DNA from: an uncultured bacterium
GTDB taxonomy: Bacteria > Patescibacteriota > Patescibacteriia > UBA9570 > XYC2-FULL-38-9
Direction: 5' to 3'
Length of the DNA stretch: 64,000 nt
Assembly: GCA_937996685.1 (NCBI GenBank)
Contig: CALKUP010000015.1
Location: forward strand, 71,900-135,899
Positions 1,279-28,630 of the stretch are shown here, in pieces. Position numbers and translations under genes: made by a program. The stretch's first letter is position 1; each line of letters starts with the position of its first letter. The notes beneath the pieces were generated by a model. That model searched no databases and was not told the DNA's origin. It saw nothing but the letters and a program-made list of their open reading frames with translations.

Positions 1279-1283
1279 AGAGA

Positions 1284-10976: not shown

Positions 10977-12488
10977 TTACAGAAGCAGCCAGACACACGT
11001 CGTCGACACGATGGCCAGCGGCACGGTAAACGGCAGTGCCATGTAGAGCATCTTCCCGTAACCGAGCTCGATCTTCGCTGCAAGCGGCGAAGTCAGCAGA
11101 AACAGGAAGGCGGCCTGCCCGTTAGGGGTTGCGATCGACAGGATGTTGGTCCCGGCATTGATCGCGATAGCAAGCTTCTCGAACTCGTGGGCTGTGATGA
11201 CACCCGAATCGTACGCTGCCTTGGCCTCGTTGATGAAGACCGTGGCGACGAAGACGTTGTCGCTGATCGAGCTCAGCGCACCTGATGCAGCGAAGAACGT
11301 AAGGAGGATCCCTTGAGCGTTCTGGGCAAGCGCGAACTCAACCACTGGCTGGAAGAGTTGGTTGTGACCAATGACATCCACGATGCCAAAGAACACAACC
11401 AGAAGCGCTACGAACGGCAGCGAAAACGTGAACGCTTGTCCGATGTGGTGCTCGTCGTTGACGCCGTTGAACACCGTCGTCAGCACAATCAGGAACAAGC
11501 CGAGAATGCCAACCTCAGCGATGTGCGTCGCGAGCCCAGTCACGAGCAGTGCAGCGCACACAGCTTGCACGGCAAGCTTGTAGGTCTCGTCGACCGTGCG
11601 GGTAGAAGACTCTTCCTTGGCGTTGGTCTCGAGCAAGGTGCGGATGGCGACGGGCATCTCTGCGCCGTAACCAAACACGCGAAGCTTCTCGACCAGCACC
11701 GACAGGACCATGCCCGCGAAAAGCGTCGGCACGGTGACTGGAGCCATGTGAACCATGAATCCGACGAAGGTCCAATCCTCGGCGAACTCCACAGGGAGCG
11801 CGCTCTCCATGACATGAGCAATCAGCAAGTTCTGTGGCTCACCGACCTTAGTGAGCACACCGCCGAGCATCGTGCCGATAGCTGCTTGCATCGAAAGCGA
11901 CTGCAAGAACGAGCGGAACTGTGCCAGCTCCGCATCGTCGCCGTCTTCCGTGCGACTACGGTAGTCGTTGTACGTCTTGTACAGCGCCAAGAACACTGTG
12001 ATCACAATCGAAATGACCGTGAGTGCATCGAGGTTCGCTGACAGGACGGCGCCGGACATGCAGAACGCGAGGCCGAGGAGTGACTTCGACTTGATCCCCG
12101 TAAGGATCTTACTGAAGACAAACATCAGTAAGTCCTTCAGGAATGCCACACCAGCGACGACGAAAACCAACAAGAGGATGACCGGGAAGTTGTGGTGCGC
12201 CTCCTCATAGAGACCCTCAACCGTGCCCATGCCCAACACCAGCGACTCCATTACGAGGAGTCCGCCGGGCAGAAGCGGGTAGCACTTGAGCGCACCCGCG
12301 AGGAAGACGATGAACTCGGCCATGATGGCCCAGCCGACCGCGAACTTGCTGAATCCGGTAGCGAGAAGCGCCGGATTCAGAACCAAGAACATGATCACCA
12401 TGGCCTTGTACCACTCGGGCGTCGAGACGCCGAGGAACGAACGGAATGCTGCCTGGGACAGCGAATGTGAATGCTGCTGAGTTTCCAT
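10977..12488 (-). CDS. nhaB: Na+/H+ antiporter NhaB; GC-rich gene
   Basis: 503 aa; close similarity to E. coli NhaB over its whole length (KCYPLLPGGLL..., LDALTV...); GC-rich. Confidence 0.8.
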   Translation of the reverse strand: METQQHSHSLSQAAFRSFLGVSTPEWYKAMVIMFLVLNPALLATGFSKFAVGWAIMAEFIVFLAGALKCYPLLPGGLLVMESLVLGMGTVEGLYEEAHHNFPVILLLVFVVAGVAFLKDLLMFVFSKILTGIKSKSLLGLAFCMSGAVLSANLDALTVISIVITVFLALYKTYNDYRSRTEDGDDAELAQFRSFLQSLSMQAAIGTMLGGVLTKVGEPQNLLIAHVMESALPVEFAEDWTFVGFMVHMAPVTVPTLFAGMVLSVLVEKLRVFGYGAEMPVAIRTLLETNAKEESSTRTVDETYKLAVQAVCAALLVTGLATHIAEVGILGLFLIVLTTVFNGVNDEHHIGQAFTFSLPFVALLVVFFGIVDVIGHNQLFQPVVEFALAQNAQGILLTFFAASGALSSISDNVFVATVFINEAKAAYDSGVITAHEFEKLAIAINAGTNILSIATPNGQAAFLFLLTSPLAAKIELGYGKMLYMALPFTVPLAIVSTTCVWLLL

Positions 12489-12624
12489 TGCTTACTCCTC
12501 TGCTCTGTTACGGAATGTGAATGTGCGTCACAATACGCATACGCGTTGTGAAACCGTATAGAATTAGCACAGTCCTTGTGAAAATACAAGCAATAATAAC
12601 GACTGTGTGTATAAGATTATAAAA

Positions 12625-12770
12625 AGAAAAAAGCCCGCATCAGACAAACGTCATAGCGGGCACAAAAGAACAAAGGGATCTGAATGAATCGTTGTCAGAG
12701 ATATGACCGGAGGGTCCCAGGTAGCGGCAGGTCTGCCGCCGCCTACCTGGGGTTGTCTCGCTGTGAGGTC
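12625..12770. repeat. kup 3' trailer module, copy 1 (imperfect 36-nt hairpin plus rho-independent terminator); inverted copy of 25753..25895
   Basis: Near-identical to the reverse complement of 25753..25895 by direct comparison; contains cccaggtagcggcaggtctgccgccgcctacctggg and gcccgc...gcgggc followed by a T-run. Confidence 0.85.
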
Positions 12771-15149
12771 CTAGTGAGCGCTGATCCGGGGGCCAGCAGG
12801 GCCACCCAAGTGGACCGGCAGAGTCTCCTCTTCAATGCCGTCGTGATCCCCGAGGCCGAAGTAGTACTGCGCCGGGAAGGACAGGCGCGACATTGCGCGG
12901 TAAAGCGCGATTCCGATGCTGGAGTACCAGGGAGCGTCGCTGTCAACGATGATGTGGTCGTTGCCAACCACGATCTCACAGCTACCCGGATCAACGCTGA
13001 TCTGTCCGCTCTCCTTGAGCTCGGTCAGAACCTGCATGATGTCCGGCTGCTCAGCCCAGCCAACGCGGTAAATGACCGAGGTCACACCTTCGCTGAAATG
13101 GATGCAAGACACCCGGTTTCCGTTAGCGCGAGGAGTATCAAGCGGCTCCACCGTCAAGAACATAACGCGTTCGGGAACGGAACCGTGCCGACGAACGTAC
13201 TCGCTTGCCTGCAAGGGCAAAGACTGCTGAAGGCCTGTCACGCCAGTTGCTGACAAGAACGCAAACTTCCTCGCGGTCACCGGAAGTGAGCTGCTTGGAT
13301 TTTTCTGCGCATTCACCAGCTCTTCAAGCGTCATCGCACCTTTTTGCGCTTCTTGGATTGCGCTACGGATATGCTCCCTTGCGATCTTCCAGGACATCAT
13401 GACGACGTAGACGCAGAGACCCATTGCAACAGGGATCCAGGCCCCATCCGTGAACTTCAAGGCATTCGCAATGAAGTACGGCCCGTCAATGAAGACGATC
13501 AAGGAACCCCAAACCACACCAGCCTTCAACGCCCCCCACTTCCAGAGGTACCTGGAGATGAAGTACATGCTGACGCTAGTGATCAGCATCACCGTCGTCA
13601 CAGCCATGCCGTACGCTGCTGCGAGCGCGCTCGAAGTCTTGAAGACCAAGACAAGAAGCGCGCACACCGCGTACAGCATCCAGTTGACCGCGGGGATGTA
13701 GATCTGACCCTGATGATGATCCGATGTATGCAAGATCTCGAGCCGAGGCAGCAAGCCGAAGCTAATCGCTGCAACAGTAAGAGAAAAAGCACCGGATATC
13801 AGCGCCTGAGAAGCAATCACCGTCGCAGGTGTCGCCAGGAACACCATCGGCACCCGGAACATCTCCGGAACAATGCTGAAGAAGATGTTGCCCTCAATCG
13901 GGACACCTCCAGTAGCAATGAACGCTGCCTGACCACCGTAGTTCAGGAGCAGCGACGGCCCAACAATGAAGAACCAGCTCTTCTTGATCGCATCCAGACC
14001 GAAGTGTCCCAGGTCTGCGTACATCGCTTCAGTACCGGTCTCGGCGAGCACGGTCGACCCAAGTATTGCCATGTCGTTCAAGGCCAAAGCCATAAACGCC
14101 ATGCCGCCCACTGAACCGGCCAGGATTGGATGGTTGAAGAGGAAATCCAGAGCCGTCAGCGGATTCAGTGCTTGGATCAAGACCCACGGAGCGGCGGCGA
14201 GCGCCATTCCACCGAAAACAGCCAAGGAGATGAACCACGCAAGCATGATCCAACCAAAGATGCCTCCAATGAACTCCGTGCCCCTGCGCTGAATCGAGAA
14301 CAGCGCAGTCAGGATGGCGAGTGCCAGCGGCACGATGAACGAATCCATCGCAGGGTTCACGACCTTGAGACCTTCAAGGGCACTCAAAACCGAAACCGGA
14401 GGAGTCAGGCCGCCCTCACCGAAGAGGAAGGAAGCTGCGATTGGCAGAACCCGCTCAGCAATCAGCACAGAGATCGACGCCATGAAGCCAGCGCCTGCCA
14501 GCTTCTTCGCGTTGATCTCACGCATGAGGCCCATGAGAGCGAAGGTGCCGCCTTCGCTCTTCATGCTCGCACGCAAGACGAAGACCGTGTACTTCACGGA
14601 CACGACGAGCAGCAGGGTCCAGACGATGATCGAGAGAATGCCGAGAGCAGCAGACTGCATCTCCTGAGCCGGAATCACGAACGCCTCTTTGGCCTCCGTA
14701 TTGGTCAGGCAGTCTTCATTTCCTGCGCAGTGATGCTTCCAGGCCATCTCGTGCAGATGATGGAAGGTTTCGTTCATCGCGTAGAGCGGGCTCGTGCCGA
14801 TGTCGCCGTAGACAACACCAAGAGCACCAAGAAGGGCGGCTCCACCAGCAGCGGCATGCACCTCGGGAGAGAGGTGCGGAGTCGTCTGGGTAGTGAAACG
14901 ACCAGTCGCCTTTTGCCACCACGACTTTTCTTCGGGGGGCCAGTAGGTCAGGCTCTGCTCAAGAGCCAAGGGGTTGTCGTCAGTCTTCAAAGCCGAAGCT
15001 TCAACGGTCACGCTGACCGTAGTGGACGTCTGAGCCTCACGAGCATTGCGAGCCTCGATGTCATCCGCCATCTGCGGACCATCTGCATGAGCATCGCCAT
15101 CAGCATCGAGCTGATGACGAAGCCGCGTTTCATCAGGAGGCCTGGTCAT
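12771..15149 (-). CDS. kup: KUP/HAK/KT family potassium transporter (copy 1) with an N-terminal extension of about 95 aa; GC-rich
   Basis: GVVYGDIGTSPLY signature, 12-TM core and C-terminal cytoplasmic domain; start set at the ATG 15149 immediately after the conserved leader (ORF track extends to 15179). Confidence 0.8.
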   Translation of the reverse strand: MTRPPDETRLRHQLDADGDAHADGPQMADDIEARNAREAQTSTTVSVTVEASALKTDDNPLALEQSLTYWPPEEKSWWQKATGRFTTQTTPHLSPEVHAAAGGAALLGALGVVYGDIGTSPLYAMNETFHHLHEMAWKHHCAGNEDCLTNTEAKEAFVIPAQEMQSAALGILSIIVWTLLLVVSVKYTVFVLRASMKSEGGTFALMGLMREINAKKLAGAGFMASISVLIAERVLPIAASFLFGEGGLTPPVSVLSALEGLKVVNPAMDSFIVPLALAILTALFSIQRRGTEFIGGIFGWIMLAWFISLAVFGGMALAAAPWVLIQALNPLTALDFLFNHPILAGSVGGMAFMALALNDMAILGSTVLAETGTEAMYADLGHFGLDAIKKSWFFIVGPSLLLNYGGQAAFIATGGVPIEGNIFFSIVPEMFRVPMVFLATPATVIASQALISGAFSLTVAAISFGLLPRLEILHTSDHHQGQIYIPAVNWMLYAVCALLVLVFKTSSALAAAYGMAVTTVMLITSVSMYFISRYLWKWGALKAGVVWGSLIVFIDGPYFIANALKFTDGAWIPVAMGLCVYVVMMSWKIAREHIRSAIQEAQKGAMTLEELVNAQKNPSSSLPVTARKFAFLSATGVTGLQQSLPLQASEYVRRHGSVPERVMFLTVEPLDTPRANGNRVSCIHFSEGVTSVIYRVGWAEQPDIMQVLTELKESGQISVDPGSCEIVVGNDHIIVDSDAPWYSSIGIALYRAMSRLSFPAQYYFGLGDHDGIEEETLPVHLGGPAGPRISAH

Positions 15150-15395
15150 GGCATTTTCCCAACGAAGGTCGCGTGGCACTTGCCGACGCGAACAAAGACG
15201 ATATGGTCAAACGGCACTCGCCGCTGACAACCATCGCCTACACACAGATTTTCGGTCTGCATGTTCTCCGCCTGGTGCGTTACGCCAGCTAAGGGTCCTT
15301 TTGACGCTTTAAAGTTTTTTGTCGTTTGTTCGACAAACAACGATTCATTCATGTGAATGTGCACGTTGTTCGATCGGCCATGGTAAGGAAGAAAA
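15150..15395 (-). promoter_or_regulatory. Conserved kup leader, copy 1 (block A of about 80 nt, a variable hairpin, block B of about 120 nt, then ATG)
   Basis: Blocks A and B are near-identical (about 90-95%) to 23351..23592 upstream of the second kup, although the two coding sequences are only about 35-40% identical in protein. Confidence 0.6.
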
Positions 15396-15729
15396 AGCTT
15401 CTGCTTCTAATTTCTTTTCACGGCAAATCGAGCAACAAAAATGGACACAGCTCGCCTGCTATTGCGATATCTTTTTTCTCTTGATCTATAGTGAATTACC
15501 TACTGTTTTTCTGCCCTCCTTTATGGAGAGAAGTCGTGCGTCGCTCTATTACAGACCAAGATATACCAACAATGAAATGTTCAGGAATACGAGCGTATTA
15601 TTGCCCTGTTTTCCGGGGCAAATGTAACGCTAAAGCTTTTTTATGTCAATAGTTGATATATCAAACTGTGTATATATCAAAAGAACTCCGATTACTTCGG
15701 AGTTCTTCGAAAAAAATGAATCAACTATT

Positions 15730-16260
15730 CTATTTTTGAATCTCTGCTAACACTTGTTTTACAACATCAGCAGGCAGCAAATTATCTGTATCAATCACTG
15801 TCATACTATGACTTGTATAGAGCTCATTACGATCATTAAACAGCTGTTGAATATTGTTTGTAATCCGCTCTTGATCAGATTGTGTTGCTTGCGGATGGCT
15901 GCCAATAATCCGTTTTGCAAGTACTTCTGGAGAAGCCTTTAAATAAACGATGTGTAGTGCGGCTGAATTTTCTCGAAAATATTCCAAGTTCAATTCATTT
16001 TCAACAATATCTCCACTGCATGCCACGACTGTTGCATTAGCGTGTGTGCTAATATCACGACTCACATCAAGTTCCAATTCTTGCCACAATGAACGACGCA
16101 CAGCATACACTTCTTCTGTTGAATCAAATCCAGAACGCTCAAGTGTGACTGCGTCCATCTCAATAAAATCTGCATTCAACTCTTTTGCGAGCGCTTGTCC
16201 AACTGTTGTTTTTCCTGAACCAATCAGGCCGAATAAAAGAATTTTCATAAATAGTTTCAA
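15730..16260 (-). CDS. P-loop kinase, shikimate kinase/gluconokinase-like
   Basis: 176 aa; Walker A LIGSGKTTVG; the size and fold are typical of the AroK family. Confidence 0.5.
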   Translation of the reverse strand: MKLFMKILLFGLIGSGKTTVGQALAKELNADFIEMDAVTLERSGFDSTEEVYAVRRSLWQELELDVSRDISTHANATVVACSGDIVENELNLEYFRENSAALHIVYLKASPEVLAKRIIGSHPQATQSDQERITNNIQQLFNDRNELYTSHSMTVIDTDNLLPADVVKQVLAEIQK

Positions 16261-16266
16261 TCAAAT

Positions 16267-18039
16267 TTATTTTAAAATCATTGGAGCATCAGAATCGAAC
16301 TCGACCGTACTGCGGTTATGTTGAAAATTACGTTGACCAACGCGACTAATAAACAACATGACAATTGTTAATACACCAACGCGACCGATAAACATCATGA
16401 TTGCCATAATAACTTTCGCTGTCACACTAAATGCAGAATAATTTCCTGTCGCACCAGAATTAGAGGCGCCGTTAATGACGGCTGGTCCAATATTTCCAAG
16501 ATTTGCAATCGCTGCTGTAAACGCTGTTTCTAAATCCATTGTTGCAGATCCACCGTTCACAAAATAAATTGTTGCACTGGTGAGCGCAATTAAGACCGCG
16601 CCAGCGAAGAAAATCAAGAAGTAAATAATCATATTCACCAAAATCAACCCAGCTGTTTTGTTGTCATATCGCATTCCATCAACCACGAATGAATCGTCAT
16701 TGCGTCCATGAATGACATTGAGAATTTGCATTTTGCAATATTTGTACAACACAACAAACCGCAATGTTTTCAAACCACCGCCAGTTGAACCAACAGATCC
16801 ACCCATGAGGTATGACAAGAATAAAATTGCAATTGCACCAATTGGCCACACAGAGAAATCTGTATTTGCATATCCAGTTGTTGAAACAATTGTTGTCACA
16901 CTGAAAAACGCATAACGCAAATTATCAAGCGCAGTTCCAATGCGGTCAGGCCATGTCATGAGCACTGCCCAAATTCCAAGAGTTGAGAGAATAATGAACG
17001 CCCAAAATGCACGGAACTCTGTGTTGTTAAACATTGCACTGGCTTTCTTTTTGAACATCAACATATACCACAGCGCAAGATTCATTCCGGCAAATGCCAT
17101 GAAAAATGCGAGCACCCATTCAGACATTGGATTTTGTAATCCACCAATCACCCGTGTGCCGTCTGGCAATGTTTGCATCAACCCAACACTTGTATCGTAC
17201 ACACCAAAGCCACCGGTTCCGAGAGCGCCAAACATCATTGTCAGCGCATCAAACACATTGTCGTACCATTGCGTATAAGGAGTTACACGGAAATACGCAC
17301 CAGTAATCAGCAGTAACACAGTACAAATCACACTCAATACAACATAGACTTTCAAAAATTCTGCACCTGAATTAATCGCCTCTTCCTCATCTTTGTAGAG
17401 CATGAAGACTGGAGTCTCGGCTTCAGAGTTAATGATTTCACCACGACGTGTTTGAAAACCGCGCCATAGTGTAATGATCATATATGCAATACCCATGCCA
17501 CCAACCCAATGAGTCCACGATCGATAGAAGATTACCGAACGTGGAAAGGCTTCAACACTTGGCAAGATACTTGTTCCAGTTGTTGTGAACCCAGACATTG
17601 CCTCATAAAATCCATCAACATATTGACGCCAGAGGCCAAATGTTTCTGCTTGCGCTGGAACTGGGAAACCACTCAAGATGAAATAAAAACTTGAGATAGA
17701 ACACGCAAAAAACCACACAAGCAAAATCACGAATGCGCCATGTTTTAAATCAAGCTTGGTTTGCACTGGATAGACTTTGCGAATAATTTGCCCGATCGCA
17801 AAAGCACCAAAACTTACAAGAGCAGCCCATACAATGTTCATCGGTTGCTCTACTGGAAATCGCGGATCATTCATTCCAATGTAAAACCAACTGACAAGTA
17901 ATGTGAGCACAAAAGACAAGCCAAGAATCACTTGCACTTCTAATGCTGGGACAAGCACGCTGACAACTTCATCAAACGCACGTTTCAAAAAATTCCCTTC
18001 TTTTTTTGTTTGTCGACTCTCTTCTTGCGACATATTCAT
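16267..18039 (-). CDS. TrkH/KtrB/HKT-family cation (K+) transporter
   Basis: 590 aa polytopic protein; selectivity-filter-like motif AMSGFTTTGTS and repeated membrane-pore-membrane organisation. Confidence 0.6.
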   Translation of the reverse strand: MNMSQEESRQTKKEGNFLKRAFDEVVSVLVPALEVQVILGLSFVLTLLVSWFYIGMNDPRFPVEQPMNIVWAALVSFGAFAIGQIIRKVYPVQTKLDLKHGAFVILLVWFFACSISSFYFILSGFPVPAQAETFGLWRQYVDGFYEAMSGFTTTGTSILPSVEAFPRSVIFYRSWTHWVGGMGIAYMIITLWRGFQTRRGEIINSEAETPVFMLYKDEEEAINSGAEFLKVYVVLSVICTVLLLITGAYFRVTPYTQWYDNVFDALTMMFGALGTGGFGVYDTSVGLMQTLPDGTRVIGGLQNPMSEWVLAFFMAFAGMNLALWYMLMFKKKASAMFNNTEFRAFWAFIILSTLGIWAVLMTWPDRIGTALDNLRYAFFSVTTIVSTTGYANTDFSVWPIGAIAILFLSYLMGGSVGSTGGGLKTLRFVVLYKYCKMQILNVIHGRNDDSFVVDGMRYDNKTAGLILVNMIIYFLIFFAGAVLIALTSATIYFVNGGSATMDLETAFTAAIANLGNIGPAVINGASNSGATGNYSAFSVTAKVIMAIMMFIGRVGVLTIVMLFISRVGQRNFQHNRSTVEFDSDAPMILK

Positions 18040-18371
18040 AGAATGTGTTAGAGTCTGCAGCTTGTGCTTTGAAAAATTTCCTGCACAAAAACAGACGTAT
18101 ATCGAATTAAATTACCCTTGACAATGAATGGATGTACTAGCGACATGTATCATTTTTGTAAAAAAATTCCACATGTCGATAGTCATCTGCGCAAACCTTT
18201 TTGTTCGCACAAACAATCAACAACGTATCATTTTTTTATTACGTTGTCGCAAGTACAGTGCATTGCACACGAGCATAGCACAGACTACTCTTGTTTTTTT
18301 TACGCGTCAAGAAACGAAAAAAAACGGAAGCTAGTCCGTTTTTTTTATTTGTAGAAAAATGCTTGTTTTTA

Positions 18372-20018: not shown

Positions 20019-20116
20019 TACACATTGCAGTCAGTATTTCTTAAGAAGAGTATAAAAACGAACCCCTTGAGTCAATCAATTTTTATCAACAAATATATCT
20101 AATTTTAGCTATATCA

Positions 20117-21448
20117 TTAAGCGATATACCACCAATAGAGCATGCCAAATGTCACCAGCCCATTAATGAATACAAGCGGGAAACCATACGCCAAATATTT
20201 CAAGAAAATAACATGGAATTTTTCTCGTTCTGCTTGCCCGAGAGCAACAACGTTACACGCTGCCCCAATTGGAGATCCAGCGCCGCCAAGTGATGTTCCA
20301 AGGTTGAGTGCCCACCATAACGGATAGACGAAAATCCCTGCTTTTGCCATTGCTTGAATCGCACCGACCATCGCGATGTTGTATGGCACGTTATCAATAA
20401 AGGTTGAAATTGCGCCAGAGCCAACTGATGTAAAGAATAATAATTTTCCTAAATCTCCATCAGTCAATTCAACGAGCTTCTCTGCTAAAAATGCAATAAC
20501 TCCAGTATGCTCTAGCCCACCGACAATAATAAACAGGCCCATGAAAAAGAAAATAATTTCCCAATCAATCAGCTTTGTAAAAACGTCGTGCATATCTTTT
20601 TTAAACGCGATAATCGCAAGGAACGCGCCGGTGAGTGTCAGTGTTGCGTTGTCGAGCGTGATGCCAGTTGCCTCAGTAATATATTCACGTGTCACCATTA
20701 ATAAAATGACAACGATTAATAGTGGGACACCGAATTTCAAAATTTGACGATCTTTAATTGCGGCTTTTGGATTAAACAATTTTAAGCTTTCAGTTTTCAC
20801 CTCAACGGCTTTCAGTTGTTTATTAAAGACAAGTAATGAATAGCTCATTACAACAACAGACAAGATCCATACAATAGCGCCAGAATTTCGCACCACTTCT
20901 GCAAAGCCAAGCCCAACAGTTTTGGCTTGATAATAGGTTGTCGGGTCAGAGATTGGCGTCATCGCACCACCGATATTTGCCATGGTGATCATCACAAAAA
21001 AATACGGCAGAAATGGCAACTTCAATTCTCGAATCAAGACAATGAGCACGGGAGTTAAAATCAATACAGTCGGAATATTTGAAAGCAGCGCTGTCATTAC
21101 TAATGACAAATACCCAAACACAATCAATAAAAGACGCGGCTTCCCTTTCACCAGTTGTACTAATCGAATGGCAAGTGACTCAAAAAGACCGGATTCTTTG
21201 ACGATGCCAACCAGCACCATCATCCCGATAATAAACCCTAAGACGTCAATATTTTTCTTCACAAACTCAAGCGCGCCGGCCTGGGAACTCGCTTCAACGG
21301 TTTTGAACACTTGCAAATAAATGAGGATCGCAGCGCCAAGCATCACAACGATCACTTTGTTAATTTTTTCAGCGATAAGAAAGGCGTACGTGACAAACAA
21401 TACAACGATGGCCATTGCTCCGTATACTGTAATATGATCTGGATTCAT
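20117..21448 (-). CDS. ArsB/NhaD/CitMHS-superfamily ion permease
   Basis: 443 aa; 12-14 TM with internal duplication; resembles the anion-permease ArsB/NhaD fold. Confidence 0.55.
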   Translation of the reverse strand: MNPDHITVYGAMAIVVLFVTYAFLIAEKINKVIVVMLGAAILIYLQVFKTVEASSQAGALEFVKKNIDVLGFIIGMMVLVGIVKESGLFESLAIRLVQLVKGKPRLLLIVFGYLSLVMTALLSNIPTVLILTPVLIVLIRELKLPFLPYFFVMITMANIGGAMTPISDPTTYYQAKTVGLGFAEVVRNSGAIVWILSVVVMSYSLLVFNKQLKAVEVKTESLKLFNPKAAIKDRQILKFGVPLLIVVILLMVTREYITEATGITLDNATLTLTGAFLAIIAFKKDMHDVFTKLIDWEIIFFFMGLFIIVGGLEHTGVIAFLAEKLVELTDGDLGKLLFFTSVGSGAISTFIDNVPYNIAMVGAIQAMAKAGIFVYPLWWALNLGTSLGGAGSPIGAACNVVALGQAEREKFHVIFLKYLAYGFPLVFINGLVTFGMLYWWYIA

Positions 21449-21467
21449 AAAAGTGTTATTTCTGTTT

Positions 21468-21914
21468 TTATTTCATTGCGTTTAATAAAACGCTTCGCAA
21501 TTCTGTTCGAGTGAAAATTCCGAGGAGCTTCCCATCTTCAAGCACTGGAACGACATATAAATCGTTATGCAAAAAGTCTGCGATAATTGTCATCACATCG
21601 GCGTCTTTTGTGACAGACAAAAAATCAGTTCGCATCACATCGCCAACGGTTTTTGTTGCAACACTTTTCGCTTCTTCTGTAAAAAACTCTGGAGTAAACA
21701 TTGCAGCAGCAAGCGCTTCATTACTCTTAAATGAAGGCGGCACAACTGCAGCAGCGATATCTTGGACTGATACCAAACCTTGTACACTTCCATTTGTATC
21801 AACAACCACAAAGGCATTGTGGTGTTCGTCAACCATTTTTTGCGCGACATCACGGAGAGTCATTTCAGCAGAGACTGTTGAAACACCGGTTTTGTACAAA
21901 GCTTCGATTGTCAT
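21468..21914 (-). CDS. CBS-pair domain protein
   Basis: 148 aa; two CBS motifs (e.g. VVDTNGSVQGLVSVQDI); same size class as ligand-sensing CBS proteins. Confidence 0.7.
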   Translation of the reverse strand: MTIEALYKTGVSTVSAEMTLRDVAQKMVDEHHNAFVVVDTNGSVQGLVSVQDIAAAVVPPSFKSNEALAAAMFTPEFFTEEAKSVATKTVGDVMRTDFLSVTKDADVMTIIADFLHNDLYVVPVLEDGKLLGIFTRTELRSVLLNAMK

Positions 21915-22061
21915 AGAATAAGCGCATTTCGCGCGATTAAAAATAATAAAGAGTGTTTAAATAATGCAAATTGATTGGGGATCAAAAGAGAAAATGCAAA
22001 CGTTAGAAATACTACTCCCACAAAAAACAGCCGTCAAGAGATTTTGACGGCGTGCGGTGGA

Positions 22062-22532
22062 TTAATATTCAACGCCTAAAATATCGGCCATTGCATGTTT
22101 GATTTCTGAACGAGACAGGAGTCCAACAACTTCACGTTGTTTGTTGATCACTGGCACATAACGGACATGTTTTTTTGATGCCATTGCGGCCGCTCGAACA
22201 AGTGGCGCGTCTTCATCAATCACACATCCTTCAACAGATGTAGTCATTTCTGAAATTGGCGCATCTGCCGCTTCTTTGACGGTCATTGCGAATGATTCGT
22301 CGTTCACAAATGTCGCGAGACTTGGATTGCTAATCAAATATTGTGGCATTAATGCGTTCATCATGTGAAATGAATCAATCACTCCCACGACTTCATTCTC
22401 AGCATTTGTTACCACTAAGCCATTTGTTTTTGCTTGCACCATCATTGCGAGCGCCTCTCGAAACGTCGTTGTTTCAGGAATTGTCACAATTTGTGTCCGC
22501 ATATATTGCTTTACTGTCATATATTTCATCAA
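22062..22532 (-). CDS. CBS-pair domain protein
   Basis: 156 aa; two CBS motifs (VVTNAENEVVGVIDSFHMM..., VINKQREVVGLLSRSEI). Confidence 0.7.
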   Translation of the reverse strand: MMKYMTVKQYMRTQIVTIPETTTFREALAMMVQAKTNGLVVTNAENEVVGVIDSFHMMNALMPQYLISNPSLATFVNDESFAMTVKEAADAPISEMTTSVEGCVIDEDAPLVRAAAMASKKHVRYVPVINKQREVVGLLSRSEIKHAMADILGVEY

Positions 22533-22608
22533 GAAAATAATCTGATTATAGCGATAGTATATATGACTATCCTCTATTCAAGCAATGGAGCTATCTCTCA
22601 GGCAGTCC

Positions 22609-23016
22609 TTATTCTTCATCCTCAAGTGCCTGATCAACAGGTTTTTCAAAGGTTGATTGATGAAATAGCGTAATAATATGATACAAACGAGCAATTTCTT
22701 GAGATAGTAATACATTTCCAGCAGCAGTCAATTGATAGTAGCGACGATTTTGCTCTTGAAAGGTTGGGTATAAATCTGCATCAGCATCATTTGCCACCTC
22801 TTCAATCACCCCTTCATCCAGCATTTTCTTAATTAGTCCATAAACGCTTCCTGGACCGATTTTAATAAGACCGTCTGTGTCTTTTCGGACACGCTGCATA
22901 ATCCCATATCCATGTTTTTTTCCATCACGCATGGTAAACAAAAAATAAAAGACCAAAGGCGTCAACGGCAACCGAATTTTTTCTATTTTTTGCTTCATGT
23001 ACTGTATTATAGGCAC
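22609..23016 (-). CDS. padR: PadR-family transcriptional regulator
   Basis: 135 aa; winged-helix PadR signature (GYGIMQRV...GPGSVYGLIKKM). Confidence 0.75.
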   Translation of the reverse strand: MPIIQYMKQKIEKIRLPLTPLVFYFLFTMRDGKKHGYGIMQRVRKDTDGLIKIGPGSVYGLIKKMLDEGVIEEVANDADADLYPTFQEQNRRYYQLTAAGNVLLSQEIARLYHIITLFHQSTFEKPVDQALEDEE

Positions 23017-23045
23017 CTCAAAACGGTTGTCTAGTGGAGTATATC

Positions 23046-23185
23046 AACTTTGATATATATAGTATATCAGAAAAAAAATACATATTTTACTGTAATCGTT
23101 TTATTTCACTTTTTTTATTAAAAACCCTTTGTTTTAGATATATCGATGTTTGATATATATCTATATTTTTTATTGATATACATGT
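23046..23185. promoter_or_regulatory. Cluster of TGATATA-type inverted repeats in the padR/kup intergenic region (candidate PadR operators)
   Basis: TGATATAtatagTATATCA (23048..23066); AGATATAT-N11-ATATATCT (23127..23153); ttgatatacatgtg (23172..23185). Confidence 0.4.
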
Positions 23186-23207
23186 GTAAAATTATACTTT
23201 TTTTTGA

Positions 23208-23236
23208 TTGACATGACCTATCGCGGGGTATAAATT
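23208..23236 (+). promoter_or_regulatory. Sigma70-like promoter for the second kup (TTGACA, 16-17 nt spacer, TATAAAT)
   Basis: Read directly from the sequence; it would give a 5'UTR of about 350 nt that covers the conserved leader. Confidence 0.45.
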
Positions 23237-23350
23237 TTGCTCGAAATTGAATGGAAAGTTTCCATTATAAGCGTACTTCCTAGAGAAATTGCAATACCAT
23301 TTTGTTGCTCGATTTGCCCTGAAAAGAAAGACGCGTTTTTTACACCTTCT

Positions 23351-23592
23351 CTTCCTTACCATGGCCGATCGAACAACGTGCACATTCACATGAATGAATC
23401 GTTGTTTGTCGAACAAACGACAAAAACCTACAACGCGCAAGAGGCCTTAACCACTATTAGCGCTAGTGGACGGAGAACACACGGACCAAAAATCTGTGCG
23501 TAGGCGATGGTTGTCAGCGGCGGGTGCCGTTTGACCATATCGTCTTTGATCGCGTCGGCAAGTGCCACGTGACCTTCGTTGGGAAAATACAG
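23351..23592 (+). promoter_or_regulatory. Conserved kup leader, copy 2 (blocks A and B)
   Basis: See copy 1; ends immediately at ATG 23593. Confidence 0.6.
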
Positions 23593-25752
23593 ATGGACAG
23601 ACTCAAATCGTGGCTTGGGTGGCTCGCAAAGCTTCCAAGTTCCTGCAAGGTCCTCTTCTTCGCCGTTCTTGCGGCGTTGAAGGTGGCCGCAATCATCCTC
23701 GAGAAGAGGACGAGGTCGCTCGTCATTGCGACCTGGAACGGGCTGATGACCTATGTCTTCTGGTCTGAAGATGCTGCACCTCAGCAGGCAAAAGACGGTC
23801 ACGGCCATCACCCGGAAACGGGGTGGTTCAGCCTTCGCACACTCTGGAATTCGTTGAGCGCACTCGGCATCGTCTACGGCGATATCGGCACGAGCCCGCT
23901 CTACGCTCTGCGAGCCGCACTTGGCTGGTTCAGGGACTCGTCCGGAGTTGTGAGCGGACATCGAGTTCCGATCATCTTGGACAACGTCCTTGGCGTCGTC
24001 TCCTTGATCAACTGGACGCTGCTCATCGTTGTGACCCTGAAGTACGTGGCGTTTGTCCTCCGCGCTGACAATCGCGGCGAGGGCGGCATCATGTCGCTGA
24101 TGGTTCTCGTGACCAGCACCTTGAAACGGCGCGGCTACATGCTCGCGATGACCGGAGCAACGCTCGCTGGCGTCTTCGGCTCGGCCCTGATCTACGGCGA
24201 CGGTGTTCTGACTCCCGCAGTCAGCGTCCTCGCCGCTGTTGAGGGCCTTGGAACAGCCTACCCAATCCTCAGCTTCGTGGTGGTTCCGCTGGCCTGCCTG
24301 ATCCTGATCGGGCTGTTCAGTGTTCAGTCGAAGGGCACCGGCAAAGTCGGCAAGATCTTCGGGCCGATCATGCTGCTCTGGTTCCTCTTCCTTGGGGGTG
24401 AAGGGCTCTATAACATTCTGGTCTACAAGCCGGAGATGTTGTATGCCCTGAGCCCGGTGTACGCGATCAAGTTCCTGATCGCAAACCCGCTCCTCGGAAG
24501 CTCGGTCATGGGCGGTGTGTTCCTGGTGGCAACCGGTGGCGAAGCACTCTACGCCGACATGGGCCACTTCGGCCCCAAGGCTATCAGGATCGCATGGATG
24601 TTCGTCGTCGCCCCAAGTCTGATGCTTCAGTACATGGGACAAGGCGCGATCGTTCTCGTGAACCCAGAAGCGAAGTTCGACCCGTTCTTCGCCGCTGTTC
24701 ATCTCGAGGGAGAAGCGCTCGCGGTGTTCGTCATCTTCCCGACGATCGCGACGATCATCGCGTCTCAGGCTCTGATCTCCGGTGTGTTCTCGCTGACGGC
24801 GCAGGCAATCCAGCTTGGTCTGCTTCCGCGCATGCCGGTGTATCACACCGACGCGAACGAGCGTGGCCAGATCTATGTCCCGGTGATCAACTGGGTTGTC
24901 TGCCTGATGGTCATACTGACCGTCATTGGTTTCGGCAGCTCGGGTGCACTTGAGTCGGCCTACGGCATCGCCGTCTCTCTGTGCATGCTCTTCACGACGG
25001 GCCTGATGATGTTCGCCAGCTTCTACCTCTGGCACTGGCGTGCTTGGGTGGTTGCGGCAGTCTGGGGTCCAATCCTCATCCTCGAAACGTTCTTCGTCTA
25101 CGCAAACGGCCAGAAGATCGCTCACGGCGGGTGGTATCCGTTGCTCATGGGCGCCGTGCTCTTCACGATCATGACCACCTTCAAGAGGGGTCAGGAGATC
25201 AAGGGCTGGTACATGAGCCGGATGTCTTTGCCGGTTGAGCGCTACCTTGCTGCAGCTCAGGACGCGTTCGTCAACCCAAAAACAGCCATCGCCTTGACAG
25301 CCGCTGCGGACCGCGTTCCGTTGGCGCTGCGGGCGATCCTTCTCGCCCAAAACGTCCGCTACGCACAAACCGTTCTTGCGACGGTCGTCACGGCTGACGA
25401 ACCGTACTGGACCGGAGATCGCGTCACTTGGCGCGACCTCGGCAACGGCATGTGGGAGGCGATCATCCATTACGGCTTCATGGAACAGAGCGCGATCAAT
25501 GTCCCTCTTGCACTGGCGCAGAGCCATGTGCCTGAAGGGGTCGACATCGATGGCATCTACATCCTGGGCCGTGATGCGGTAGTCCCTCATCAGGACGTTG
25601 GCGCGCCTGTTGAAGACGATCAGCCTGCTCCGATGGCCTATTGGCGCGAGAAGCTCTTTGAGCTGATGATCGCCAACGCGCAAAACGCGGTCACCTGGTT
25701 CAAGGTGCCGCCTGGACGCTTCCACCAGATCGGCATTTCGGTTGTGATCTAA
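23593..25752 (+). CDS. kup: KUP/HAK/KT family potassium transporter (copy 2); GC-rich
   Basis: GIVYGDIGTSPLY signature; 719 aa from the ATG that follows the conserved leader (ORF track begins at 23524 inside the leader). Confidence 0.8.
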   Translation: MDRLKSWLGWLAKLPSSCKVLFFAVLAALKVAAIILEKRTRSLVIATWNGLMTYVFWSEDAAPQQAKDGHGHHPETGWFSLRTLWNSLSALGIVYGDIGTSPLYALRAALGWFRDSSGVVSGHRVPIILDNVLGVVSLINWTLLIVVTLKYVAFVLRADNRGEGGIMSLMVLVTSTLKRRGYMLAMTGATLAGVFGSALIYGDGVLTPAVSVLAAVEGLGTAYPILSFVVVPLACLILIGLFSVQSKGTGKVGKIFGPIMLLWFLFLGGEGLYNILVYKPEMLYALSPVYAIKFLIANPLLGSSVMGGVFLVATGGEALYADMGHFGPKAIRIAWMFVVAPSLMLQYMGQGAIVLVNPEAKFDPFFAAVHLEGEALAVFVIFPTIATIIASQALISGVFSLTAQAIQLGLLPRMPVYHTDANERGQIYVPVINWVVCLMVILTVIGFGSSGALESAYGIAVSLCMLFTTGLMMFASFYLWHWRAWVVAAVWGPILILETFFVYANGQKIAHGGWYPLLMGAVLFTIMTTFKRGQEIKGWYMSRMSLPVERYLAAAQDAFVNPKTAIALTAAADRVPLALRAILLAQNVRYAQTVLATVVTADEPYWTGDRVTWRDLGNGMWEAIIHYGFMEQSAINVPLALAQSHVPEGVDIDGIYILGRDAVVPHQDVGAPVEDDQPAPMAYWREKLFELMIANAQNAVTWFKVPPGRFHQIGISVVI

Positions 25753-25895
25753 ACAGCGAGACAATCCCAGGTAGGCGGCGGCAGACCTGCCGCTACCTGG
25801 GACCCTCCGGTCATATCTCTGACAACGATTCATTCAGATCCCTTTGTTCTTTTGTGCCCGCTATGACGTTTGTCTGATGCGGGCTTTTTTCTTAT
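25753..25895. repeat. kup 3' trailer module, copy 2 (hairpin plus terminator)
   Basis: Near-identical to the reverse complement of 12625..12770. Confidence 0.85.
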
Positions 25896-25974
25896 AAAAT
25901 TCCCACTCTTTTTACCTGAACACACAGCAAAAATCAGATTGACAGAAGGGCTATCTCTTTGTATTCTGAGGGCA

Positions 25975-27714
25975 ATGAAACGACAAAAACTCAACCAATG
26001 GTACGCAACGGCAATTTGCGGAAATGACATCATGAGCTCGACTTTATATGTCTCTGGAATTGCCATTATTTTCGCCGGAGCCTATGCGCCACTCGTCCTT
26101 CTCGCTATTGCCTTAGTCTTATTTTTTTACAAAGCCGTTTACACTGAAGTCGTTGAAGCCCTCCCAGTCAACGGCGGCGCCTACAACTGCTTACTCAATG
26201 GGACCTCAAAAACAATTGCGGCCATTGCTGGAATCATGAACTTTTTGTCCTATATCGCAACTGCTGTCTTGTCAGCAAAAGTCGGCATAGGGTATCTGCA
26301 TACAATCGCACCAATGGTGCCAGTAATCCTCGGCACGATCTTGTTATTATTATTCTTTTTATTACTCGTTCTCTCAGGCATTAAACACGCCGCAAAAATT
26401 GCGCTAGTGATTTTCATCTTCCACATTATTACACTCACAACACTGGCAATTGTTGGGACGATCTTTTTCTTGAATGGTCATTCGTATTTCATGGAAAATG
26501 TTGCGTATACAAAAACAATGATGGAAGGTCACGGCGGCCTCTGGATTGGCCTCTACCTCGCATTCTCTGCTTCCCTCCTTGGTGTCTCTGGTTTTGAAAG
26601 TTCAGCAAACTTTGTGGAAGAACAAGGCAAAGGAGTCTTCCGTAAAACCTTACGCAACATGCTGATTGGTGTGGCGATTTTTAACCCACTTATGGCATTA
26701 GTTGTTCTCAACAGCCTGCCATTTGAAGCGATTGTCAACGCAAAGGACTTTTTACTCGCTGACGCTGGTTTGCAGATGGGTGGCGAATTCTTGAAATATA
26801 TGGTCGCTATTGATGCAGCGCTTGTGCTCTCTGGTGCAGTTCTAACGTCGTATGTTGGAGTTAGTGGATTATTGTCTCGCATGACTTTGGACAACTGTCT
26901 GCCAAGCTATTTCGGAAAGATGAACAAACACGGTGCGTACCCTCGTATTCTCATTGCATTTTTCTTACTCTGTGGCGCAATTTTATTAGTGACAAAAGGA
27001 AACCTCTTATCACTGGCTGGTATTTACACTATTGCCTTTTTAGGTGTGATGACACTGTTTGGTATTGGTAATTTAATTTTGCGGCAAACCCGCACAGATC
27101 TGCAGCGTCCATATAAAGCGCCGTTGCTTTTTGTTGGACTTGCGTCAGTTGCGACATTATTTGGAATCATTGGAAATATTCGCATCGACCAAGAAAATCT
27201 CCAATTCTTTGAATTATATTTCATCCCGGCAGTCATCATTGTGTTGATCATGGTCTATCAAGATCACATTACAAAAGCCCTTGTGCGAATCACCGAGCAA
27301 TACACATGGTTGCATGGTATACACCGTTGGTTATTAAAGCACTTCAAAGATCAATCAGAAGGCAATCTTGTGATTTTTATTCATCACGCTGCTCGATTAC
27401 ACGCTGTGCTTGATTATATTAACCGAAATGAAACAAGTGAAAATATCACGATCGTCCACTGCAATGACCCACGAGATATCCTCCAATTAGAGTTTAAAAA
27501 AATCCAAAACATCCTGCCTCTTTTAAAAGAAGTTGGTATGTTTTCTCATTTTACATATCGCTTAGAGTACGTTGAACAAGAGTTCAGCGCACAGGCAATT
27601 GACGCTGTTGTTCGTGATTTAAAAATCAATAAAAATCGTGTCATGATTGGTGCAATCCGTGACTTCAAACGGTTTAATTACGATGAGCTGCGTGGTGTTC
27701 GGGTGATTATTTAA
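25975..27714 (+). CDS. APC-superfamily transporter with a C-terminal cytoplasmic domain, possibly a KimA-like K+ importer
   Basis: About 579 aa from Met 25975; 12 TM followed by a soluble domain of about 170 aa; the neighbourhood is dominated by K+ transporters. Confidence 0.45.
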   Translation: MKRQKLNQWYATAICGNDIMSSTLYVSGIAIIFAGAYAPLVLLAIALVLFFYKAVYTEVVEALPVNGGAYNCLLNGTSKTIAAIAGIMNFLSYIATAVLSAKVGIGYLHTIAPMVPVILGTILLLLFFLLLVLSGIKHAAKIALVIFIFHIITLTTLAIVGTIFFLNGHSYFMENVAYTKTMMEGHGGLWIGLYLAFSASLLGVSGFESSANFVEEQGKGVFRKTLRNMLIGVAIFNPLMALVVLNSLPFEAIVNAKDFLLADAGLQMGGEFLKYMVAIDAALVLSGAVLTSYVGVSGLLSRMTLDNCLPSYFGKMNKHGAYPRILIAFFLLCGAILLVTKGNLLSLAGIYTIAFLGVMTLFGIGNLILRQTRTDLQRPYKAPLLFVGLASVATLFGIIGNIRIDQENLQFFELYFIPAVIIVLIMVYQDHITKALVRITEQYTWLHGIHRWLLKHFKDQSEGNLVIFIHHAARLHAVLDYINRNETSENITIVHCNDPRDILQLEFKKIQNILPLLKEVGMFSHFTYRLEYVEQEFSAQAIDAVVRDLKINKNRVMIGAIRDFKRFNYDELRGVRVII

Positions 27715-27867: not shown

Positions 27868-28425
27868 TTAGTCTGCTTTTTCGCGACGGAAGTGAACCAC
27901 ATCACCCGAACCACGATAACCACTCGTCTCCACCTCAGGCAGAAGGAGGCAACGAAGAACATGACAAGGGCGCTCAGTGAAGTACGCCATAGCCTTCAGC
28001 ACCGAGCTCGCATCAATTTCCACTACCTCACTCGACTCAAGTCCTCCGATGATTTGATCCAGTGCAGCGCAGACAATTGCGATATCGCACTCACAGAAAT
28101 TGACGAAGCCAAGCAGGGCGATCTTGTGAGCATCTCCCGTCACCCGCTTGGCCACGTGCGGGTACCGCGCAAGAGCCGCACCCACCAAAGGAAGCGTGGA
28201 TGCAAGCTCCTGATACAACTCAATCTGACGCTGGATCGTTTCAGCATTTTCCTGAGGAACCCTTACGCGTAGATCAGGCTCAGTCTTGACGATCTCCTGC
28301 GCCATTTGCAGCTCCTGGAGGGAGTTGAGACCGATGATCCACTTAAAGTAGTCCCAGCCTCGCTCAATCTCATTCTCCTCAGCAAGCACCGCCTGAAGCA
28401 CTTCGATCATTTCAGCCTTGTTCAT
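27868..28425 (-). CDS. Hypothetical protein; GC-rich gene adjacent to the tRNA-Val fragment and gene
   Basis: 185 aa; no recognisable motifs; local GC about 57%. Confidence 0.4.
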   Translation of the reverse strand: MNKAEMIEVLQAVLAEENEIERGWDYFKWIIGLNSLQELQMAQEIVKTEPDLRVRVPQENAETIQRQIELYQELASTLPLVGAALARYPHVAKRVTGDAHKIALLGFVNFCECDIAIVCAALDQIIGGLESSEVVEIDASSVLKAMAYFTERPCHVLRCLLLPEVETSGYRGSGDVVHFRREKAD

Positions 28426-28613
28426 TGCGAACTCCTTCTACATGCTACATGAGGTAGCTTTTGGGTTTGCTCAATTTCACAGACCGCTCAATAAAAAGGT
28501 GCTACATACCGAATTTGAGTGCACATCCTCCTCTCTCAAATTACGCCTCTATAGGATCATGTTACCCCTCTTTTGTCAATACAAAAAAGACCCTACGGGT
28601 CTCCTTTGTTTTT

Positions 28614-28630
28614 GTGGGCGCTGAGGGGCT
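28614..28630 (-). repeat. 17-bp copy of the tRNA-Val 3' end (att-like remnant) preceded by a terminator-like hairpin
   Basis: gtgggcgctgaggggct is identical to 28812..28828 inside tRNA-Val; both copies are preceded by a hairpin plus cctttNtttt. Confidence 0.6.

Follow-up and report, generated by a model that had tools for sequence, protein, structure and literature searches.

Two compositionally foreign kup genes share their non-coding flanks in a putative layered cation-homeostasis neighbourhood of a Peribacteria-like bacterium

Introduction

Bacteria of the Candidate Phyla Radiation (CPR) have tiny genomes and are thought to be host-dependent, and to our knowledge almost nothing is known of how they regulate their ion balance or of how they put acquired genes to use. 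How could a cell of this kind bring a set of K+ and Na+ transporters, some of them foreign in composition, under common control? The question is raised by a stretch of 64,000 nucleotides from an uncultured patescibacterial genome (GenBank assembly GCA_937996685.1, contig CALKUP010000015.1, positions 71,900 to 135,899), referred to here as the window, a term that always means the whole 64-kb stretch. Between positions 10977 and 27714 it encodes an NhaB antiporter, two Kup proteins, one KtrB-type and one TrkH-type K+ transporter subunit, a permease of the CitMHS/ArsB superfamily and an APC permease, together with two CBS-pair proteins, a PadR regulator and a P-loop protein that resembles shikimate kinase.

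Families were assigned by Pfam and NCBIfam profile searches on six-frame open reading frames (ORFs), with comparison to solved structures for selected proteins, and the window was compared with a set of related loci (L001–L014). Every gene named in an original prediction, made from the letters alone, is present where it had been placed, and the TrkH-family, K_trans, NhaB, CBS and AA_permease_2 domains were all recovered. The family assignments bear out its view of the locus as a cation-transport neighbourhood, and the clustering is not due to chance, as the core formed by the Ktr, Trk and kinase-like genes recurs in relatives. Counting the APC permease, which keeps the essential residues of the K+ transporter KimA, six of the seven proteins plausibly carry cations.

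The genes of the locus are new members of known families. What goes beyond current knowledge is the cassette of 5' leader and 3' untranslated region (UTR) that is shared by foreign K+ importers, as well as the conserved pairing of a TrkH-type gene with a kinase-like gene. The reading developed below, which we hold with moderate confidence, is that of a layered cation-homeostasis neighbourhood of a Peribacteria-like (CPR) bacterium with a shared riboregulatory kup cassette.

The shared flanks of the two kup genes

The genes kupA (12771-15149, minus strand; K_trans 9e-137 plus K_trans_C) and kupB (23593-25752, plus strand; K_trans 8e-160 plus K_trans_C) encode KUP-family K+ transporters of 792 and 719 aa, and a public gene call for the first (P0241) gives the identical 792-aa product from the identical ATG. 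Both proteins carry VYGDIGTSPLYA, the (V/I)(Y/F)GD motif of the first transmembrane segment, and neither reaches the equivalog cut-offs of NCBIfam. They are 35% identical to each other (BLASTP), and their DNA cannot be aligned apart from a 35-nt patch at the VYGDIGTSPLYA motif, which is 97% identical. At this patch, considered as a possible trace of gene conversion within the genes, 34 of 36 nt are identical between kupA and kupB, and other GC-rich Kup genes keep 28–30 of the 36.

The flanks of these two genes, which lie in inverted orientation, are near-identical on both the 5' and the 3' side. The 5' leader extends over approximately 290 nt (15440-15153 for kupA and 23300-23588 for kupB) and is a mosaic in which a 30-nt block (97% identity), a 91-nt block (95%) and a 118-nt block (93%) alternate with two unrelated blocks that can each still form a hairpin. 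The identity runs to within 3–4 nt of each ATG and, beyond the stop codons, resumes at a distance of 0 or 6 nt. A shared regulatory circuit had been part of the original prediction, and it is for the two kup genes, through these common non-coding flanks, that such a circuit becomes visible.

The ORF extensions that overlap the leaders of kupA and kupB lie in different frames, which indicates that the leader is non-coding. Its conserved part, delimited by inverted repeats and by alignment, spans 15153-15440 (minus strand) in kupA, where a core of stems P1-P2(-P3) occupies approximately 15318-15436 and the target of the 3' seed described below occupies 15337-15351. The sequence next to the ribosome-binding site (RBS) of this copy is TTCGTTGGGAAAAT, its fold has a z-score of -4.8, and it scores 171.7 bits with R1, a covariance model (CM) built from the three leader copies (kupA, kupB and L002). 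The kupB copy (23300-23588, plus strand) has its core at approximately 23304-23425 and its seed target at 23391-23405, and scores 159.3 bits.

The third copy is found in L002 (GCA_964492735.1), the nearest other sampled genome, at positions 11634-11782. It is 73–81% identical to the window copies, scores 118.8 bits with R1, and lies in the 168-nt spacer that leads from the ktrB orthologue to a GC-rich trkH paralogue, TrkH498, which is a K+ gene of another family than kup and whose product is 44–48% identical to the KtrB proteins of the clade. All three copies stand directly upstream of compositionally foreign K+ uptake genes, in the sense orientation, and end at the RBS. Judging from these positions, the leader probably predates the duplication of the kup flanks and appears to be tied to K+ genes.

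The elements that the three copies have in common define a possible RNA structure. P1 is a long stem, GUUGC.CGAUUUGC ... GCC.AUCG.ACAAC, with a variable tip; it is followed by a kept junction, GUGCA, by the short hairpin P2 (CAUUC/GAAUG) with a loop that is not the same in all copies (ACAU versus UUAAUC; ACAT versus TTAATC as DNA), by AAUCGUUGUUUGU, and by a box before the start codon, UUCGUUGG(G/A)(A)AAU, with an RBS-proximal TTCGTTGG(G/A) box. Two pairs of P1 are changed on both sides with pairing kept in the three-copy alignment, and P1 folds in the same way in all three copies when each is taken in isolation.

No additional copy of the leader occurs elsewhere in the 64-kb window. No Rfam family reached the gathering score over the whole window, an E-value of 5 or below over 18 kb, or an E-value of 10 or below for the leader and the 3' UTR alone, the matches being noise from miRNA-like hairpins. 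The ydaO-yuaA c-di-AMP riboswitch was rejected, as its Rfam model did not match the isolated leader at any E-value up to 10. Among the genes of the window we saw no diadenylate cyclase. Three further candidates were set aside: small antisense ORFs over the leaders (15319-15627 and 23192-23440), which are not alike and are regarded as spurious; a conserved leader peptide, as the frame and the start of MADRTTCTFT, which the window leaders encode, are not kept in L002; and ATTCA-NN-TGAAT as a DNA operator, given that the spacing of the arms differs in the L002 leader, which favours an RNA hairpin. The exact form of ATTCA-NN-TGAAT is confined to the two window leaders and a single site in L002, where the P2-like palindrome ATTCATGTGAAT lies 11 nt before the ATG of the ktrB orthologue (L002 9979-9990).

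The 3' UTR module and its seed

The 3' modules of kupA (12615-12764, minus strand) and kupB (25753-25902, plus strand) are 150 nt long and 97–99% identical. That of kupA has a strong hairpin, a seed at 12681-12695 and a terminator at 12633-12645 followed by a T run; that of kupB has a hairpin, a seed at 25822-25836 and a terminator at 25872-25884, also with a T run. The kupB copy has a fold z-score of -4.05, and a terminator scan recognised the intrinsic terminators of both modules.

A mostly single-stranded stretch of the 3' UTR holds ACAACGAUUCAUUCA, which over 15 nt is perfectly complementary to UGAAUGAAUCGUUGU, the 3' strand of P2 in that gene's own leader. When the 3' UTR was dinucleotide-shuffled 3000 times, runs complementary to the leader extended to 13 nt at most, and none reached 14. 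The duplex formed by the seed has a calculated energy of -22.7 kcal/mol, compared with -9.6 for the P2 hairpin. RNA duplex prediction for the full leader against the full 3' UTR returned whole-length duplexes no better than those of shuffled sequences, and the seed was instead judged by the longest-complement shuffle test and the local duplex energy. An interaction between seed and P2 within the kup mRNAs is predicted on this basis.

Pairing between the two ends of an mRNA has a precedent in icaR of Staphylococcus aureus, where a 3' UTR segment is complementary to the 5' UTR of its own mRNA at the Shine-Dalgarno region (PMC3868564). The kup modules resemble that system, and 3' UTR-derived small RNAs, in the complementarity of 5' and 3' UTR and in the order of hairpin, seed and terminator. 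They differ in that the pairing is predicted, that it involves one strand of the upstream stem P2 and not the Shine-Dalgarno sequence, and that one seed could act on two mRNAs.

Promoter-like sites and a candidate operator

The promoter scan placed a promoter-like site, TTGACA-17-TACATT, before kupA (15649-15621, minus strand) and another, TTGACA-17-TAAATT, before kupB (23208-23236, plus strand). Next to the first, only 4 nt from its perfect TTGACA, lie TTGATATAT motifs that include the palindrome TTGATATATCAA (15653-15680, minus strand). The control region between padR and kupB (23039-23236, plus strand) contains clusters of TTGATAT/ATATCAA half-sites at 23039-23070 and 23136-23182. The exact TTGATATAT motif occurs five times in the 64 kb, compared with 0.42 expected, and no shuffle reached five; all five occurrences are at the kupA upstream site or between padR and kupB. 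The L002 locus, where padR is missing too, does not contain the motif. A relaxed operator pattern, TGATATATCA with 2 mismatches, proved too noisy for use.

The gene padR (22609-23016, minus strand; PF03551 5e-12, the PadR winged-helix domain) heads a minus-strand operon that diverges from kupB, and its likely start is the ATG at 22998. Its own promoter-like site, TAGACA-16-TATAAT (23033-23006, minus strand), matches 11 of 12 positions. The promoter-like -10 boxes of padR (23006-23033; ATG 22998) and of the APC gene (25939-25967; ATG 25975) lie approximately 7 nt before the likely ATGs, which suggests that the transcripts of padR and of the KimA-like gene are leaderless. Upstream of the KtrB-type gene (19985-20130) we also observed a promoter-like site, TTGACT-17-TATACT, GATATA-like motifs that resemble the kup operator and, within the 5' UTR, a long hairpin formed by CTCTTCTTAAG...CTTAAGAAAGAG.

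Foreign composition of the GC-rich genes

The GC content at third codon positions (GC3) is 0.77 in nhaB, 0.69 in kupA, 0.76 in kupB and 0.76 in an ORF of 361 aa, compared with 0.28–0.43 in the neighbouring genes. These ORFs are separated by AT-rich intergenic DNA, so that each coding region forms a GC island of its own. The original prediction had counted three GC-rich acquisitions: nhaB, kupA and kupB are indeed compositionally foreign, and the 361-aa ORF brings the number of GC-rich ORFs to four. It had also described the genome as AT-rich, a description that has to be tempered, as the background of approximately 42–45% GC is only moderately so. The additional ORF (9625-10710, minus strand; GC 0.64) lies between the V-ATPase operon and nhaB, has a signal-peptide-like N-terminus, gave no Pfam or NCBIfam match, and is likely a foreign passenger gene. 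The antiporter gene nhaB itself (10977-12488, minus strand; PF06450 1e-161, covering residues 9-502 of 503) stays under the NCBIfam equivalog cut-offs (NF007093, 591 versus 640 bits; TIGR00774, 536 versus 826), and its product is a divergent member of the family.

A search of 5.8 billion proteins returned no close relative of either Kup. The best non-self relatives of KupB were approximately 46–47% identical, and the few of them with a named organism are Gemmatimonadaceae, Vicinamibacterales, Thermoanaerobaculia, Polyangiaceae and a gammaproteobacterium. The best non-self relative of KupA is 41% identical, and the named matches include other CPR lineages.

Foreign genes of the same kind are found beside the ktrB orthologue in three relatives. 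L001 has GC-shifted Na_H_Exchanger, TrkH and Kup genes there, with GC3 of 0.83–0.88; L002 has the GC-shifted TrkH498, with GC3 of 0.72; and L011 has an NhaA gene with GC3 of 0.59, compared with approximately 0.2 for its genome. KupA, KupB and the Kup of L001 are mutually only 33–35% identical, which implies that the acquisitions were independent. The neighbourhood acts like a site at which cation transporters have landed repeatedly.

Among genomes with a KtrB orthologue 62–72% identical to that of the window, overall GC content ranges from approximately 0.33 to 0.57, with L003 and L011 at approximately 0.33–0.34, and L004 (GCA_964439155.1, 1-21587; KtrB 64% identical) has 0.57 GC throughout, ribosomal protein genes included. 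It is plausible that GC-rich members of the same clade were the donors of the GC-rich genes of the window.

Hot spots of xenologous gene displacement or acquisition are a general concept, and the present case is alike in that foreign genes of one class recur at one neighbourhood under resident regulatory DNA. It differs in that two different xenologues carry common resident 5' and 3' modules, as an inverted pair and to within a few bases of start and stop.

The conserved core and the adjoining ATPase

The original prediction spoke of two Trk/Ktr genes. Both belong to the TrkH family, as proposed, and they are of different types. The KtrB-type (NtpJ-like) membrane subunit (18372-19976, minus strand; 534 aa) matches PF02386 at 2e-60 and solved KtrB at 1e-46, and the TrkH-type membrane subunit (16267-18039, minus strand; 590 aa) matches PF02386 at 6e-27 and the solved TrkH structures 3pjz and 4j9u at 6e-25. 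Downstream of the latter lies the shikimate-kinase-like (SKI-family) P-loop gene (15730-16260, minus strand; PF01202 9e-25).

These three genes form the conserved core. KtrB-type orthologues are 62–70% identical across the clade (64% in L001, an uncultured 'Candidatus Peribacteria' that is the single species representative with a close relative of this protein and on which, with L002, the Peribacteria-like placement of the window is based, and 70% in L002), TrkH-type orthologues are 44–54% identical in L002, L011 and L013, and the SKI-like orthologues, 34–42% identical, lie directly downstream of the TrkH-type gene in relatives. The TrkH-SKI pair is present in the window (15730-18039) and in four related loci, L002 (7478-9721), L011 (879-5313) and L013/L014 (11490-13788 in L013), with TrkH-type proteins of 574–590 aa; in L011 a Na+/H+ exchanger is inserted between the TrkH-type and SKI-like genes. 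The core is usually close to rplS (which encodes L19) and to the ATPase operon (L002, L011, L013/L014), and in L009 the KtrB orthologue is directly 3' of V-ATPase subunit D. The locus of the nearest relative, L002, has none of the cbs, padR, APC, nhaB and kup genes, and its CitMHS-type gene, 26% identical to that of the window, is not orthologous. As an aside, the L19 of the window (29166-29651) has a Glu/Ala-rich N-terminal extension of approximately 50 aa.

That the SKI-like protein is a true shikimate kinase was ruled against: it scores at most 75 bits against cut-offs of at least 142 for every shikimate-kinase equivalog, and its LID segment is deleted in all four clade members relative to an AroK sequence aligned with them. 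In some members of the clade the Walker A motif is degenerate as well. No RCK/TrkA subunit was found in the 64 kb, either by tblastn with the TrkA of a relative (best E=0.5) or by Pfam scans of sizeable ORFs, and the lack of such a subunit beside the Trk/Ktr genes had been correctly anticipated; in L003, a canonical TrkA adjoins a TrkH paralogue. From its conserved position, the SKI-like protein may be an accessory or regulatory Trk subunit in place of TrkA.

The neighbouring V/A-type ATPase operon (661-9175, minus strand; Pfam) encodes subunits I, c, C, A, B and D plus small ORFs. The best solved match of its c subunit (6368-6841) is subunit K of the Na+ V-ATPase of Enterococcus hirae (2bl2), at 2e-24. 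At the positions aligned to L61, T64, Q65, Q110 and E139 of 2bl2, which we take to be the Na+-site residues of NtpK (Murata 2005), the window protein has L, S, Q, Q and E; this alignment suggests that the V-ATPase beside the cluster may be Na+-pumping.

The ntpJ gene of the enterococcal ntp operon encodes KtrB (PMC12604602). The window resembles the ntp operon of E. hirae and E. faecalis in that a V-type ATPase with an NtpK-like c subunit is linked to a KtrB-type gene, and the position of KtrB directly after subunit D in L009 is the enterococcal ntpJ arrangement (PMC12604602). In contrast, the KtrB-type gene of the window lies approximately 9 kb away and is separately transcribed, with foreign genes in between, no KtrA and six further transporters.

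Further transporters and the CBS-pair proteins

The APC-superfamily permease (25975-27714, plus strand; PF13520, AA_permease_2, 6e-54) ends in a cytoplasmic extension. Judged on its whole sequence it is a generic APC permease: among solved structures it is closest to a mammalian amino-acid transporter (3e-10), and it matches KimA (6s3k) at just E=4e-4 and 22 bits, in the membrane domain. When it is aligned over the whole KimA membrane domain (phmmer against 6s3k), residues D36, Y43, T121, S125, E233 and Y377 are all kept; mutation of D36, Y43 or E233 abolishes K+ uptake by KimA, and mutation of T121, S125 or Y377 lowers its affinity (PMC6994465). The GxG motif of xCT is replaced by 'MSS' in the window protein, where KimA has 'LSS', and it has Ser at D117 and T230, neither of which is essential in KimA. 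The proposal that this protein is KimA-like agrees with these retained residues, and the alignment makes a K+/H+ symporter its most likely function. The likeness to the KimA of Bacillus subtilis, a K+/H+ symporter from a KUP subfamily with the APC fold, lies in the essential residues and in the C-terminal cytoplasmic extension; on the other side, the overall similarity is very weak, xCT scores better, and the comparison covers the membrane domain only.

The ion-transporter (IT)-superfamily permease (20117-21448, minus strand), of the CitMHS/ArsB/NhaD-like kind, matches PF03600 (CitMHS) at 5e-59, with weaker matches to ArsB and NhaD, and is far under the cut-offs of the ArsB, NhaD, MamN and DASS models (46 versus 80 bits for NhaD). 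Adjoining it are the CBS-pair proteins of 148 aa (21468-21914, minus strand) and 156 aa (22062-22532, minus strand), each with two PF00571 domains.

A proposed layered neighbourhood with a regulated kup cassette

The reading that we prefer distinguishes three layers. The first is the clade core seen in relatives, consisting of the ktrB-type gene and the trkH-type gene with its SKI-like partner, near the rotary ATPase operon and rplS. Onto it would have been added the foreign nhaB, kupA and kupB together with the passenger ORF, whose composition is observed and whose origin is deduced. To this second layer would also belong genes with no counterpart seen in relatives, namely the two cbs genes, padR, the KimA-like APC gene and the IT-superfamily permease gene. 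The third layer would be regulatory: both kup genes would sit in one cassette, present as an inverted pair and made up of operator, sigma-70-like promoter, leader, RBS box and 3' UTR.

According to this model, the leader would be a cis-acting RNA switch that sets the translation, and possibly the stability, of the mRNAs of K+ importers. The sequence CAACG could pair with any of three GUUG boxes, namely the 5' GUUG of P1, the CGUUG after P2 and the RBS-adjacent CGUUGG, and such mutually exclusive pairing appears to resemble that of translational RNA switches. The 3' UTR, in cis or as a processed small RNA, would open P2 and shift the pairing equilibrium, with feedback and co-regulation of both kup genes as the outcome, and PadR probably adds transcriptional control. 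The near-identical blocks of the flanks are best explained if the cassette was copied and its inverted copies then exchanged sequence by gene conversion; for the presence of two unrelated coding regions in one cassette, displacement in situ under selection for the flanks is our best guess. In terms of physiology, a putatively Na+-pumping V-ATPase and NhaB would handle Na+ and H+, while Ktr/Trk, the two Kup proteins and the KimA-like carrier would import K+.

One known parallel is the c-di-AMP riboswitch of the ydaO/kimA type, which in Firmicutes precedes kimA, ktrAB and kdpFABC; its regulatory logic has been described for kdp (PMC6488665). The kup leader is alike in being long and structured and in standing before K+ genes of different families. 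It differs in its architecture, which combines a long hairpin, a short hairpin and mutually exclusive GUUG/CAAC pairings.

More tentatively, and we would call this unlikely in its full form, Peribacteria might possess a hitherto undescribed cassette, made up of the P1-P2 switch, the antisense seed of the 3' UTR and possibly a PadR-bound TTGATATAT operator, that domesticates acquired K+ importers of different families under one signal of K+ status.

Weighing the alternatives

Several observations weigh against the regulatory reading. Three leader copies are known, two of which are near-duplicates, and covariation amounts to two pairs, which makes the evidence for an RNA element suggestive rather than strong. 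The fold of the kupB leader has a z-score of only -2.0, and the full-length minimum-free-energy fold of the L002 copy does not contain P1. R1 found no leader in the 12 other related loci (L001 and L003–L014; approximately 200 kb), exact leader patterns had zero matches in collections of genomes, metagenomes and viral contigs, and neither the 3' UTR module nor an equivalent seed was found in the L002 locus. PadR is a candidate binder of TTGATATAT by proximity only. As to the foreign layer, the closest relatives of the GC-rich genes are only 40–47% identical, and their recent horizontal transfer is deduced solely from composition.

An alternative history, to which we give a minor though real chance, is that an ordinary kup locus, with its promoter region, UTRs and terminator, was duplicated in inverted orientation, one or both of the coding regions were afterwards displaced in situ by foreign kup genes and conversion kept the flanks alike, so that the flanks have no special regulatory meaning and the leader is a long 5' UTR. 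The inverted pair, the confinement of identity to non-coding DNA and the mosaic of near-identical and unrelated blocks, typical of conversion tracts, all fit such a history, as does the recurrence of foreign cation-transporter genes at this neighbourhood in relatives. It does not account so readily for the leader core in L002, with its KtrB 70% identical, which is kept before a K+ gene of a different family with changes that preserve the stem, nor for a 15-nt complementarity of 5' and 3' regions far beyond chance, nor for the hairpins that both variable blocks keep; moreover, two displacements, each of them precisely at the start and stop codons, would require that the flanks were under selection. 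That the flanks are non-autonomous mobile repeats (miniature inverted-repeat transposable elements, Correia or ERIC-like elements, or cassette recombination sites) which came to lie beside kup by chance is improbable. It is true that P1 forms a long, imperfect inverted repeat whose centre varies, and the elements are repeated within 13 kb. However, the three copies are all in the sense orientation, directly before K+ uptake genes, and end at the RBS, with no further copy in the 64-kb window or in the approximately 220 kb of related loci; the left flank is unlike the right flank; and the window ORFs scanned contained no transposase, integrase or recombinase domain, nor did inspection of the 3' flank reveal an attC-like architecture. 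An assembly artefact, by which the GC-rich genes and repeated flanks would be chimeras of metagenome assembly, could explain the sharp GC steps in what is an uncultured metagenome-assembled genome, and is nevertheless extremely improbable: the repeats are 93–99% and not 100% identical and are mosaic, KupA and the KtrB-type protein are on the same 168-kb contig in several public sources, the junction of kupB with 69 nt of leader sequence is also present in a separate public contig (P0001, 742 aa), the same leader stands before a GC-rich gene in an independent genome (L002), and single GC-rich genes in an AT-rich context recur across independent assemblies.

A different kind of alternative, put forward in the original prediction, concerns the control of the core transporters: the CBS-pair proteins would replace RCK and gate Ktr/Trk, perhaps through c-di-AMP or adenine nucleotides. 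CBS pairs commonly bind adenine nucleotides, the window lacks an RCK subunit, and the cbs genes belong to the same minus-strand gene string as Ktr/Trk. Against this, cbs genes are absent from all related loci with orthologous ktrB and trkH, the two proteins score 37 and 32 bits with the CbpB/DarB model NF041630 (cut-off 125) and have only generic CBS matches among solved structures, and their genes adjoin the IT-superfamily permease and not the Trk genes. Furthermore, the conserved partner of TrkH in four relatives is the SKI-like P-loop gene, and one relative (L003) has a canonical TrkA beside a TrkH paralogue. Gating by the CBS proteins is consequently very improbable, and this part of the prediction is abandoned here.

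Other features of the window

A 48-nt direct repeat with 79% identity (28583-28630 and 28781-28828, 198 nt apart) consists of a terminator-like hairpin and a 16-nt 3' end of tRNA-Val(UAC), and may be the remnant of an integration site; near it, a 185-aa ORF (27868-28425) has a raised GC3 of 0.59. ARAGORN called a tRNA-Ser with anticodon ACU (35509-35598) and a tRNA-Ile with anticodon UAU (53276-53352), both unusual for bacteria. Positions 40095-40288 and 42992-43191 are 80–85% identical and lie in or near large unannotated ORFs (39965-41533 and 42862-43554), which probably encode paralogous surface proteins. Towards the end of the window, two pairs of direct repeats (60950-61037/62662-62749 and 61456-61538/63081-63163; 83–88 nt, 91–96% identity) bracket a gene with a RhuM/Fic domain (61650-62636).

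Implications for cation homeostasis in CPR bacteria

At this locus, next to a V-ATPase of the Na+ type, the cell invests heavily and in several layers in moving K+ and Na+. Its two unrelated foreign kup genes, alike in their non-coding modules on both sides, are a case open to test. If the cassette reading is true in its full form, CPR bacteria would have a new class of cation-homeostasis leader or riboswitch, and non-coding modules would be reused around foreign genes with a precision at the level of codons. Should the leader prove to be a sensor, K+ uptake would have a new RNA regulator that stands outside the c-di-AMP paradigm, and if the kinase-like protein is the partner of TrkH, it would represent a new kind of Trk accessory subunit.

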